Of a DNA stretch of 36,860 nucleotides, positions 9,173 through 20,834 are shown piece after piece. Position numbers and translations under genes: made by a program. The notes below the pieces were generated by a model, which was not told the DNA's origin, ran no database searches, and saw nothing but the letters and a program-made list of their open reading frames with translations. Numbering within the stretch: the first letter of the stretch is position 1; the number at the start of each line of letters is the position of its first letter. The DNA comes from Parachlamydiales bacterium. Its GTDB lineage: Bacteria > Chlamydiota > Chlamydiia > Chlamydiales > JAJFMK01. The stretch lies in contig CAVXVG010000012.1 in the NCBI GenBank assembly GCA_963765145.1, positions 1 to 36,860 on the forward strand. The letters are read 5' to 3'.

Positions 9173-10144
9173 ATGGCGATGGATTTTTGGGCCGCTCAAA
9201 AAAGGGCCCGCTATTGGACAACGCTTTATATAGCGTTGTTCGTGGTCCTTACAGCTGTGATGGCTGTATGTGTTGAGTTGGCCCTGCGTGCCTTTTCCCC
9301 AGACTATGCAGAAACCTCCTTCCCTATTTTTGGGGCCCTTTTTGCATTTCTCACCTTTATTGTGGCTGCCTTTCAATATCTGAATTTCCGGACACAAGGT
9401 GGCAGTTTTGTCGCCAGATCTTTGGGGGCAAGAGAGGTGAGGTTCACATCCAAAAACCCTAAAGAGCTTCAGCTTTTAAACATTGTCGAGGAGATTTCTA
9501 TAGCCTCCGGCATGCCTATGCCGTCAGTCTATATTTTGAATAAACCATCGATCAATGCCTTTGCAGCAGGCCTTACCCCAAGTACGGCAGCCGTCACAGT
9601 AACTGATGGGGCCCTGGACACTTTAAACAGGGAAGAGCTTCAAGGGGTGATCGCCCATGAATTTGGCCACATTTCAAATGGAGATATGGCCATTAGCATG
9701 CGTCTTGCAGCTTTAGTGATGGGGTTCTTTTTCATTCTTTTTATCGCATTGAGAATATTGAGAATATCGAGTTTAACCGGAGATCAGGGAAAAAAAGGAG
9801 GGCAAGTCCTTGTGCTAGCATCGCTTGTCTTTTTTCTTGCCGGCAGTGTGATGTGGTTTTTTGGGTCGATTTTGAAATCGGCTGTCAGCCGAGAAAGAGA
9901 ATACTTAGCCGATGCTTCTGCCGTTCAATTCACCCGCAACCCAGATGGCATTGTGAATGCGCTTAGGAAAATTGCTAACGAAACGGTGACAGATATGCCG
10001 GACAATGGGGCCTATTCTCACCTCTATTTTGATGACCGGACCCCATTCAGCGGCCTTTTTCACACCCACCCACCATTAAAAAAGCGGATACAAGCCCTTC
10101 TCAACCGAGACTACATCCCTCCCGAGTGGAATATCCCTTCTTAA
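9173..10144 (+). CDS. htpX: M48-family zinc metalloprotease HtpX
   Basis: NAFAAG, HEFGH zinc motif, SREREYLADA and THPPLKKRI, directly downstream of lemA. Confidence 0.93.
   Translation: MAMDFWAAQKRARYWTTLYIALFVVLTAVMAVCVELALRAFSPDYAETSFPIFGALFAFLTFIVAAFQYLNFRTQGGSFVARSLGAREVRFTSKNPKELQLLNIVEEISIASGMPMPSVYILNKPSINAFAAGLTPSTAAVTVTDGALDTLNREELQGVIAHEFGHISNGDMAISMRLAALVMGFFFILFIALRILRISSLTGDQGKKGGQVLVLASLVFFLAGSVMWFFGSILKSAVSREREYLADASAVQFTRNPDGIVNALRKIANETVTDMPDNGAYSHLYFDDRTPFSGLFHTHPPLKKRIQALLNRDYIPPEWNIPS
10012..10144 (+). repeat. htpX 3'-end direct repeat, copy 1 (inside the intact gene)
   Basis: 133 bp, matches 13603-13735 at 121/133 with no gaps. Confidence 0.97.
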
Positions 10145-11015
10145 TTTCTTCTATCACCCGGAGATGGGCGATAAGATCGTGGAAAAAAGGGGCTGACCAA
10201 AGATCTAGTTTTCGTTTGTCGGCAATAAAAACAGAAACGTCGTTTTTAGCTAAATTCCAGTCGATCAGATCGATCTTTTGATGAAGCCGTTCTATCAGTT
10301 CTTTTTTTTCAAATTTTTCATTTGGCTTCAAGTGGTTAGTTTGACGCATCCTTTCCCGCAAATGGGCTAAATTCACTGCAATGCCATTCTGAATATACCA
10401 GAGTAGATCATACCAATCTCTTCCTTTTACCCTTTTCTGCCAGTTTCTGCAGAGGGCGGCATGCATCTTCCCAGCAAAAAGGTCGACGATAGCAAAGGTG
10501 GTTACGTAAAAGGGAATGGGCGTTGTGACAAGCTTGCTTTCAACCGGCAAAAAATTTAATGGCGGTTCGGTGTCGATCTCTAATTTAATTTGGATTTTTT
10601 GCTCTGGGTGAATTCCTGGTATCTTCTTTTTTTCTTGGATGGAAAGAAGCAGTAGCTGGGTATTGGCTTTTAGAAAGGCAGACCAAATGCCTGTTTCTCC
10701 ATTTTTTTTTTTCACTTGTACATCAAGCTCAAAGCCCATCGCTTTTAATTCTTGGTGCATACCGTTCAAAAAGGGGGAAAAATTGAATGCGGTATTTTTT
10801 TTGAGCAAAGAAAAATCAAGATCTTCGCTGAACCGATCAAGTCCATATAATATTCTCAAGGCTGTTCCACCATAAAATGCGGCATGCTCAAAAAAATGGT
10901 GCCTTGCTAATCCCAACAATGCCGTTTGCTGTAAAATTTCTCTTAATTTATCAGTATACGAGTATGTTTCCGGGTAACTATTGAGCATTTGCAAGATACT
11001 AGAATCGAATTTCAT
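10101..11015 (-). CDS. abiEii: AbiEii-family nucleotidyltransferase toxin (type IV TA)
   Basis: FYGGTALRILYGLDRFSEDLDF motif, IKLEID, and K-x-x-A...RDWYD. Confidence 0.92.
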   Translation of the reverse strand: MKFDSSILQMLNSYPETYSYTDKLREILQQTALLGLARHHFFEHAAFYGGTALRILYGLDRFSEDLDFSLLKKNTAFNFSPFLNGMHQELKAMGFELDVQVKKKNGETGIWSAFLKANTQLLLLSIQEKKKIPGIHPEQKIQIKLEIDTEPPLNFLPVESKLVTTPIPFYVTTFAIVDLFAGKMHAALCRNWQKRVKGRDWYDLLWYIQNGIAVNLAHLRERMRQTNHLKPNEKFEKKELIERLHQKIDLIDWNLAKNDVSVFIADKRKLDLWSAPFFHDLIAHLRVIEEIKKGYSTREGCSLG

Positions 11016-11647
11016 AAGATCCCTACGATATTCAGTAAATGGTCCACACTTTTCGCCCGGTAGGCTGTTGCTATCTGACTTAAAAGCTCTTTATCCATCT
11101 GCAAAAGGGCTTCTGGATCTATTCTTTTGGATTCAAGCAACTCTATTTTTAGTTCCTCTTTATCAAGATATCTACAGGTCACAAAAACTAAATCAGCTAG
11201 GGCTTTTTCTGGAGAGGCAATGAAAAAATTTCCAAGAAAATTTGCTTCCGCCTTTTGGGTGACTCCAACCGAATATTTAACGTCATTGAGTCGGTGATAA
11301 ACAAAATCACCAATCGGAGTATGAAACGTTTTATCTCTCCCATTTGTCATGGAGGTCACAGTGTGAACCCGTTCAGGAATCATTCCATAAAACGATAGAG
11401 CCCATTCAAGACTTACATAAGAAGGTCCATATAAACGGTTAGCAACCTGCTCATAGGGGATCACTCTCCCGCTTTTCTGCTCAATTTTTTCGGCGACTAA
11501 ATAAAAACCATTACTGAGTCGAATGAGCTCCCCATTTTTAACCATCCGTAAAATGGCATCCCTTGGCCGTTGATAGCCGCATAAAAAAGGGAGAAGCGTT
11601 TGCGCATCCACATAAGGTGTCTCGATTTGTTTCAGAATACTTGGCAT
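11012..11647 (-). CDS. abiEi: AbiEi-family antitoxin / transcriptional regulator
   Basis: GELIRLSNGFY, YGPSYVSLEWALSFYGMIPE and ASPEKALAD. Overlaps the abiEii start by 4 bp. Confidence 0.9.
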   Translation of the reverse strand: MPSILKQIETPYVDAQTLLPFLCGYQRPRDAILRMVKNGELIRLSNGFYLVAEKIEQKSGRVIPYEQVANRLYGPSYVSLEWALSFYGMIPERVHTVTSMTNGRDKTFHTPIGDFVYHRLNDVKYSVGVTQKAEANFLGNFFIASPEKALADLVFVTCRYLDKEELKIELLESKRIDPEALLQMDKELLSQIATAYRAKSVDHLLNIVGIL

Positions 11648-11672
11648 TATCTTCCTCCTTTCCCCAATCTTA

Positions 11673-20000: not shown

Positions 20001-20534
20001 GCAGAGTTTTTGTTTCGACTCGGTCAACATGAGGATGCTTTAACCATCTTCAAATATGCTCTTGCTCGCGATCAATTTTATTTTGGCATGATAGGTCAAA
20101 AGCCACACCCAAGAATAGCTCATTGGCATGACAGGATGGGCGAAACATTGCAAGCGCTTGATAAGAACGAAGATGCATTTGGCCATTATCAAGTTGCCGC
20201 GCGATTGCTAGAAAGCATTCATGGCAAAAACAGCCCATTATTGCTTGATTCTCAGAGTACCTGCGGGATTGTGCTTGCTCGCATGAAAAGGTATGAGGAG
20301 GCCATTGCCTATGAACAAAAAATCTCGGCATCCTTGCTTCATTAGAGCGCGATAGCAGCCGATCTAATAGCTACTACAACCTAGGTTTTTACTATAGGTC
20401 TTGAAAGGTACGATGAAGCCCTGGATGCCTTTCAACAATCTCTAGCTATCAGAATAAAACTCTTTGGGAAAGGGGGAGGAACTCGTAACACTCCGAGACG
20501 TATCGCCGCTCTCCTTTTACGAAAACAAACATAA
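17011..20534 (+). CDS. Multidomain protein: PP2C-like phosphatase + DUF294-like nucleotidyltransferase + TPR repeats (frameshifts near 18870 and 20330-20400)
   Basis: PP2C-like SDD, VSVDGFHG, SIGDIG and GDDCT. NTase LGPPP...MGSGARGEMCLFSDVE. TPRs FGETHKKTAKCYYNIA and HPRIAHWHDRMG. The frame continues to TAA at 20532-20534. Confidence 0.72.
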
Positions 20535-20721
20535 GCTTTACACTCCTTCCAGGCTGTCAAAGATAGAAACCCGTTTCATTACTCCCATTGACATTGTGCC
20601 TACGGCTATTATCGATGGGAGTCATAATTGAAAATCTCTAAAAAACCCTTCTAAAATTGAAAGAGTCCTAGCTTTTTCACCAAGCATCTTCTTAAGTCGG
20701 GTATTGAGGAATCGAGGCAAA

Positions 20722-20834
20722 TTTGATCGGCCCCCATTCAGCGGTCTTTTTCATACTCACCCCCCATTGAAAAAGCGGATACAAGCCCTTCTACCAGGGA
20801 TTACATCCCTCCCGAGTGGAATATTCCTTCTTAA
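20722..20834 (+). repeat. htpX 3'-end direct repeat, copy 3 (5'-shorter)
   Basis: ccccattcagcggtctttttcatactcaccccccattgaaaaagcggatacaagcccttct is identical to copy 2, then a 1-bp indel, ending cccgagtggaatattccttcttaa. Confidence 0.95.

Follow-up and report, generated by a model that had tools for sequence, protein, structure and literature searches.

How does the end of one housekeeping gene come to stand three times in a row, with unrelated genes between the copies? The question is raised by htpX, the gene of an M48-family protease, in 36,860 nucleotides (nt) of a Parachlamydiales bacterium (GenBank assembly GCA_963765145.1, contig CAVXVG010000012.1, positions 1 to 36,860, forward strand); this whole stretch, the window in what follows, is contig C12 of the assembly that we call G000 (37 contigs, 2.68 Mb, 85% complete). 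Positions 13603-13735 repeat the last 133 nt of htpX, and 20724-20834 its last 111-112 nt (two leftovers of 37-44 codons), confirming the recurrence reported in an initial annotation, which had begun the second leftover near 20722. The whole 2.68-Mb assembly holds only three copies of the tail, the working gene end (tail 1) included. We read the two leftovers (tails 2 and 3) as scars of an integrase-free, one-sided recombination, in which RecA pairs one end of the incoming DNA and an illegitimate joint forms at the other, a reading that we hold tentatively and would put just short of an even chance. The locus is one instance of a genome-wide scar, and neither a dedicated landing pad nor a new element.

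The divergence of the tails suggests what they once were. Tails 1 and 2 are set apart by 12 nt differences, which fall in 11 codons, and every change is synonymous, including TAA/TAG, in exact agreement with the codon list of the initial annotation. When 12 random changes were simulated neutrally 800,000 times (200,000 under each of four transition biases), no run was silent-only, and this divergence is not due to chance. The silent-only divergence that the annotation ascribed to the array holds for the first two copies but not for tail 3, where 9 silent codon changes are accompanied by 2 amino-acid changes and a 1-nt gap relative to htpX. The differences between tails 1 and 2 are spread along the whole length, and comparison with L055 and L056, loci from other strains, sorts the three tails into two allele groups: tail 1 and the gene body go with L055/L056 (5-7 differences in 132 sites, as against 13-14 for tail 2), and tails 2 and 3 have derived alleles in common. 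Simulations and strain alleles together support the view, already put forward in the annotation, that tails 1 and 2 each evolved as working C-termini in different lineages; the pattern would be silent-only because each tail served as a working C-terminus until it was stranded. With G001, an assembly of the same genus, as outgroup for nine tail or head copies, the ancestral copy could not be told.

What follows htpX also varies among strains. Metagenome contigs from three peat runs and one soil run (4 of the 12 runs listed) were compared, and the metagenome search gave 9 loci from 85 candidates. In G001, which is a single contig, htpX has one tail, followed by one unrelated 407-amino-acid (aa) open reading frame (ORF) and then omcB. 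Through htpX the window shares 95-96% identity with L055 and L056, which diverge from it 10 nt past the stop codon; their cargo is a 126-aa ORF and, as read from its translation, an autotransporter-like ORF, with no second tail in the 2.1 and 3.4 kb covered. The HtpX protein of the window has 89% aa identity to that of G001 and 99-100% to those of L055/L056. The site is variable because L055/L056 carry other cargo and G001 one tail only, and the different cargo for which the annotation had suggested looking was found, four different downstream alleles being represented by the window, L055/L056, G001 and the relative G002. Block 1, the cargo between tails 1 and 2, starts 10 nt downstream of the htpX stop codon rather than directly at it, as had been thought. 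Over htpX 118-540 (L056 starts at 118) one position differs between L055 and L056, as against 18 in the last 432 nt, and their cargo is 99.7% identical; alike in 5' htpX and cargo and unlike in the last ~430 nt, they point to recombination inside htpX. A go-back joint, as circles joining the tails would give, is not among the joints listed for four contig sets (contigs drop rare forms). Three candidates were discarded: a joint 13602->20596 in run X2, taken at first for an allele without tail 2 and block 2, has a short side of 21 nt, and its two pieces fall on a single spot of contig C2; a joint 11753->21136 has a side of 20 nt only; and the seven records that matched in a search for a plasmid origin of block 1 each cover at most 4% of it.

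The same anatomy recurs across G000. Of its 1,893 ORFs with 150 aa or more, 33 have a downstream copy of their own 3' end, and after removal of paralogue copies 27 orphan tails of 28-546 nt remain at 23 ORFs, about 16 independent loci by a hand count that drops mirror hits, fragment ORFs and gene families. Scarred genes include a RecQ-family gene and cydB (three extra tails each), clpX, pseB and hemW. Pooled, the orphan tails hold 197 silent and 82 amino-acid changes, and the tail of an lptG-like gene has 32 silent changes to 4 at 81% identity. As controls, 3' ends upstream gave 5 copies at 4 ORFs, mostly mirror images, and heads downstream 7 copies at 7 ORFs; stranded heads upstream number 16 at 13 ORFs, including clpB. 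Most duplicated units have their end 17 nt or less from the stop codon (a single one extends 209 nt beyond), and the stranded tails begin at unrelated sequences, in which no common motif was found. Of the proposal that htpX is a landing pad, the strain-dependent cargo is supported and the special role of the gene is not. Two arrays elsewhere in G000 may be mentioned here: at L071 (C4:5710-10195) a second copy of parC, without most of its middle, stands downstream of the first; its head is 98% identical and its tail 86%, with 15 silent changes to 2; and within the recQ tail array the cargo (L049, 6608-11870) comprises an ABC transporter, two SagB-like dehydrogenases and an acetyltransferase, which in G001 lie at another place with 81% identity.

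Variable, motif-free joints at many genes, taken together with tails that evolved as working alleles, point to one-sided homologous capture from diverged strains. Chromosomal DNA of a diverged strain would enter as linear DNA, RecA would anchor one of its ends by homology, and the illegitimate joint would fall where each stranded tail begins, between 13602 and 13603 and at about 20723/20724; tail 2 would be a recent stranding and tail 3 an older one. The incoming DNA could be either block 1 or tail 2 with block 2, and the data fit two geometries. In the first, the anchor would lie on the far side (block 3 or omcB) and the stranded tail would be the free end of the donor fragment, too short and diverged to recombine, as in canonical homology-facilitated illegitimate recombination (HFIR) with loss of recipient DNA. 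In the second, the anchor would lie in htpX, the donor would supply tail 1 and block 1, and the old tail would be displaced downstream. A non-homologous joint at a variable position, a feature of HFIR, is seen without a motif at the 23 ORFs, and it is the side of the anchor that we infer. A hint of a far-side anchor may lie in the spacer before tail 2 (13582-13602) and the hairpin before tail 3 (20573-20690), which both match C2:63532-63781 (about 250 nt) with order and strand preserved, a spot at the start (5' end) of an sdhC-like gene and the long hairpin upstream of it (z -9), although these matches may be chance; a search of the hairpin against Rfam matched no RNA families. G000, G001 and G002 all have genes for recA, dprA and comEC.

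Several observations weigh against one-sided capture. Among the matches listed, no contig bridges 13602 to 13603 or 20723 to 20724, and a 24-mer across the junction has no match among genome contigs (its own genome possibly left out). Scars are found at only 2 of 863 ORFs in G001 (1.24 Mb, 47% of the genome) and at none of the 689 ORFs that a 1.0-Mb sample of G002, G019, G033 and G039 contains, an excess in G000 with P 0.009 against G001 and P 0.001 against the other samples, and this scar-rich genome is the indel-noisy assembly. Stranded heads as a class show no silent bias (91 silent to 117 amino-acid changes). Genes for comEC and dprA are no proof of competence, and HFIR anchored in a gene normally deletes rather than duplicates, according to the accessible part of PMC3240628.

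A linear fragment with gene tail and cargo could instead be circularised, possibly by Ku-LigD, and inserted by one RecA crossover in the tail, a Campbell-type insertion-duplication, in which the insert is flanked on either side by the homologous segment as a direct repeat, as is seen here. Such products are known from Escherichia coli substrates, where 56 of 60 clones had a gene-end duplication, of 109-950 bp in the 14 sequenced (PMC3240628, in its accessible part), and the Ku-LigD operon is intact in G000 (L148, C5:77921-81026) and Ku is cut to 129 aa in scar-poor G001 (L147, C1:495355-495744). However, many tails are shorter than 70 nt and about 10% diverged, which would make them poor RecA substrates, and since the body of htpX goes with tail 1 rather than with tails 2 and 3, later gene conversion would have to be added. 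Our preference for the linear one-sided route rests on the many tails that are both short and diverged and on the unbroken passage of the htpX body into tail 1; the circular route, which we keep as the first rival, we consider unlikely. Ku, found in 7 of the 41 genomes of the order searched, was also considered as a driver of scarring and rejected: the contrast between G000 and G001 is suggestive, but the four relatives with full-length Ku, in a sample made up of Ku-positive genomes, account for the 689 ORFs free of scars.

It is also conceivable, though we judge it quite unlikely, that strain alleles of the htpX-omcB interval were put in tandem by a strain-mixed assembly. G000 is noisy: orthologues compared with G001 contain 99 isolated 1-nt indels in 312 kb (~1 per 3 kb, in 63 of 274 genes), which are not homopolymer-biased, and 80 of 478 conserved ORFs are shortened. 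Strain mixtures are present in the compared runs, contigs matching block 1 are mostly ~94-95% identical and those matching block 2 mostly ~100% among the matches listed, and the enrichment of scars in G000 would fit. Yet indels occur in 7 of the 27 tails, where the assembly indel rate predicts 1.1 (P 2e-4); the tails have decayed beyond what assembly error explains, which is unlike working alleles. The pooled ratio of silent to amino-acid changes, 197:82, compares with 77:4 in working htpX alleles (different genes, and thus indicative), stranded tails as a rule have no k-mer-long identical opening stretch, the two tails in G001 lie in a single contig, and G000 contigs of up to 296 kb running through hundreds of repeats would suggest long reads. 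Pieces of all three blocks are present in the three peat runs; contig depth by block lies near the floor and is given no weight. We do not take the frameshifts in block 2 for pseudogenisation, since core genes too are split and public contigs are gapped there; its breaks and the gap in tail 3 may partly be assembly errors, and split genes in G000 generally should not be taken as pseudogenes without reads.

Local tandem duplication of the htpX region, followed by divergence of working copies and deletion of most of the extras, would be in keeping with other duplicated pieces nearby (the half inverted repeat and the paralogues of gene 6819-8183 described below) and with the internally deleted second parC. 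It is improbable: the blocks between the tails are unrelated to one another, no second htpX body or lemA is left, and single-copy strains show the same kind of silent differences, so that paralogy within a genome is unneeded.

An integrase would leave a different mark. As the annotation had stated, the blocks encode no recombinase (a scan of 35 window ORFs matched no family of integrases, resolvases or transposases), and the search for recombinases elsewhere in the genome that it proposed gave eight tyrosine recombinases, all on other contigs, with no serine resolvase domain in the 85%-complete genome. Four of the eight lie within ~2 kb of tRNA genes, and G000 has classical integrase islands with 48-50-nt attachment (att) repeats at tRNA-Met and tRNA-Leu (both tandem) and tRNA-Asn; in each of these arrays, beside tyrosine recombinases, the repeats begin at one identical base, unlike the orphan tails. 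Of the features of Islander-type islands, htpX shows a displaced direct-orientation fragment 3' of the intact gene; an integrase gene in every tandem unit is absent, and instead of one fixed crossover point the tails start at -132 (tail 2) and -111 (tail 3) relative to the stop codon. An att site specific to htpX was rejected on the unequal tail starts, the want of a motif and the ~16 unrelated genes scarred. It is thus very improbable that non-autonomous cassettes are stacked by an integrase from another locus, with the htpX 3' end serving as its attB, even though eight recombinases are available and displaced target fragments are a mark of integrase islands (PMC4383910, accessible part), given the 21 nt between the starts of tails 2 and 3, the motif-free scars and the tRNA-linked recombinases with their fixed repeat starts. 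Of the two routes of mobility that the annotation had offered, homologous recombination is likely and a trans-acting integrase unsupported.

One-sided capture resembles several described systems, which we compare here on the accessible parts of the cited papers. HFIR, with one homologous and one illegitimate end and usually a deletion (PMC3240628), has been reported from Streptococcus pneumoniae, Acinetobacter baylyi and Pseudomonas stutzeri (PMC3240628, PMC2884548). Like the scars, it has a variable junction and no integrase; it depends on RecA, and ComEC and DprA genes are present here. Its laboratory products, which show 3-10 bp of microhomology, combine insertion with deletion, whereas the visible product here is a stranded gene-end duplicate, up to three times at one gene. 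In E. coli conjugation, trimmed and recircularised DNA integrates by single crossover (PMC3240628), and a variable gene-end duplication flanks foreign DNA in both cases (109-950 bp there, 28-546 nt here), but from an engineered plasmid with identical sequence there and between natural alleles 2-19% diverged, with serial stacking, here. For the effector-immunity arrays of the Vibrio cholerae type VI secretion system and for rhs loci, HFIR has been proposed to explain 3' ends serially displaced downstream, with no integrase shown in the part of the paper accessible (PMC5361080); there the anchor is a polymorphic toxin whose C-terminus changes, and here housekeeping genes keep their protein end and unrelated cargo builds up. 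Islands of the Islander type share the intact gene, the cargo, the displaced 3' fragment and the tandem arrays (PMC4383910), but the present arrays lack an integrase per unit and a fixed crossover site and affect many unrelated protein genes. In Chlamydiaceae, ComEC-linked uptake and a lack of DprA are reported (review PMC8936141, accessible part). Among the open-access papers listed there was no description of a stranded-tail scar at htpX or in chlamydiae and no paper on htpX as an integration site of genomic islands. The htpX tails are likely a variant of a known recombination process, the footprint of integrase-free exchange between related strains.

The coordinates of the locus are collected in the table. 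Block 1 holds abiEii, abiEi, the inverted repeat, a helix-turn-helix (HTH) gene and hipA; block 2 holds ADP-ribosyltransferase (ART)-like, ankyrin, nucleotidyltransferase, Sel1, SidD-like and TPR ORFs, several of them fragmented. Both blocks are as first annotated, to which a third non-core block after tail 3 (20835-22758) must be added, and the blocks separated by tails are mutually unrelated in sequence. At the +10 junction abiEii has no stop codon of its own and reads 44 nt into htpX antisense; its G001 homologue ends earlier. The omcB-like gene on the downstream flank would suggest a chlamydial origin of the DNA. The abiE inverted repeat is found beside abiE in G001 too, and its half copy is stranded past tail 3. 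The region 17011-20345 carries a fusion of two domains, a SidD-like phosphatase of the de-AMPylase type and a DUF294 nucleotidyltransferase, behind which come DUF294_C and TPR repeats; judged by its domains, this may be an effector-like gene that combines writer and eraser of nucleotidylation. Upstream of lemA, gene 6819-8183 has a weak C-terminal DnaJ match and adjoins a cluster of REP-like palindromes (region 6732-8512); gene and cluster are absent from L055 and from contigs of the runs X1 and X3 (joint 6731->8513), and the lemA upstream side is therefore variable too. The REP-like family has more than 100 matches genome-wide, with window copies at 8240-8460, 1537-1625 and 34548-34914, and a second palindromic family occurs at 75-187 and 34607-34855. 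REP-directed insertion was dismissed for want of enrichment, a high-copy repeat lying within 150 nt of 2 of 22 junctions and of 210 of 1,893 gene starts.

Table. Features of the htpX locus (window coordinates) and integrase islands elsewhere in G000
Feature	Position	Strand	Remarks
lemA	8559..9170	+	Pfam LemA E 1e-55; conserved upstream flank; lemA-htpX 86% identical to G001
htpX, intact, M48 protease (Peptidase_M48/HtpX)	9173..10144	+	
Tail 1, working gene end	10012..10144	+	Groups with L055/L056 alleles
10-nt untranslated stretch	10145..10154	+	Common to L055/L056; alleles diverge past 10154
abiEii, type IV toxin-antitoxin (TA) toxin gene	10101..11015	-	Pfam AbiEii; native 3' end missing
abiEi antitoxin gene	11012..11647	-	NCBIfam TAA_AbiEi E 1e-14, below cut-off
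36-nt inverted repeat 5' of abiEi	11673..11755	.	Likely abiEi operator
HTH antitoxin gene and hipA-like kinase gene	11964..13582	+	Pfam HTH_3, HipA_C, Couple_hipA
21-nt junction spacer	13582..13602	+	19/21 match on contig C2
Tail 2, stranded, silent-only	13603..13735	+	
Four effector-like ORF pieces: ART-like, ankyrin, ankyrin, nucleotidyltransferase C-domain	13859..16594	+	Pfam matches: ankyrin strong; PARP/ART and DUF294_C weak
Sel1-repeat ORF	16611..17009	+	
Two ORFs: SidD-like phosphatase domain and DUF294 nucleotidyltransferase; then DUF294_C and TPR	17011..20345	+	Pfam SidD_cat E 2e-26, DUF294, TPR_12
Partial long hairpin	20573..20690	.	Second copy at C2:63609-63778
Tail 3, stranded, shorter, decayed	20724..20834	+	Derived alleles in common with tail 2
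abiE inverted repeat, half copy (90%)	20892..20949	+	
Block 3: broken paralogues of gene 6819-8183	21086..22549	+	tblastn 31-54% identity; unmatched at G001 site
omcB-like gene, conserved downstream flank	22959..24476	-	G001 homology resumes at 22759
Integrase islands	C2:150430-171270, C20:65371-81368, C29:89063-102974		tRNA-Met, tRNA-Leu, tRNA-Asn

The routes by which chlamydiae acquire non-homologous genes are only partly understood. Provided that the arrays are real, gene ends left stranded would be a simple, searchable signature of integrase-free gene gain, one that marks the exact joints and preserves old alleles, and island finders that require an integrase, as the filter of Islander does in the accessible account (PMC4383910), would miss them. 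It is possible, though on balance doubtful, that this peat lineage gains accessory genes without integrases, by transformation-like uptake through ComEC and DprA and by one-sided RecA capture, with defence and effector genes stacked at the ends of core genes. If so, donors would be up to ~19% diverged, each event would leave a datable allele fossil, and from the ~16 arrays one could read off the way in which foreign DNA is taken up and spliced by an obligate intracellular bacterium.

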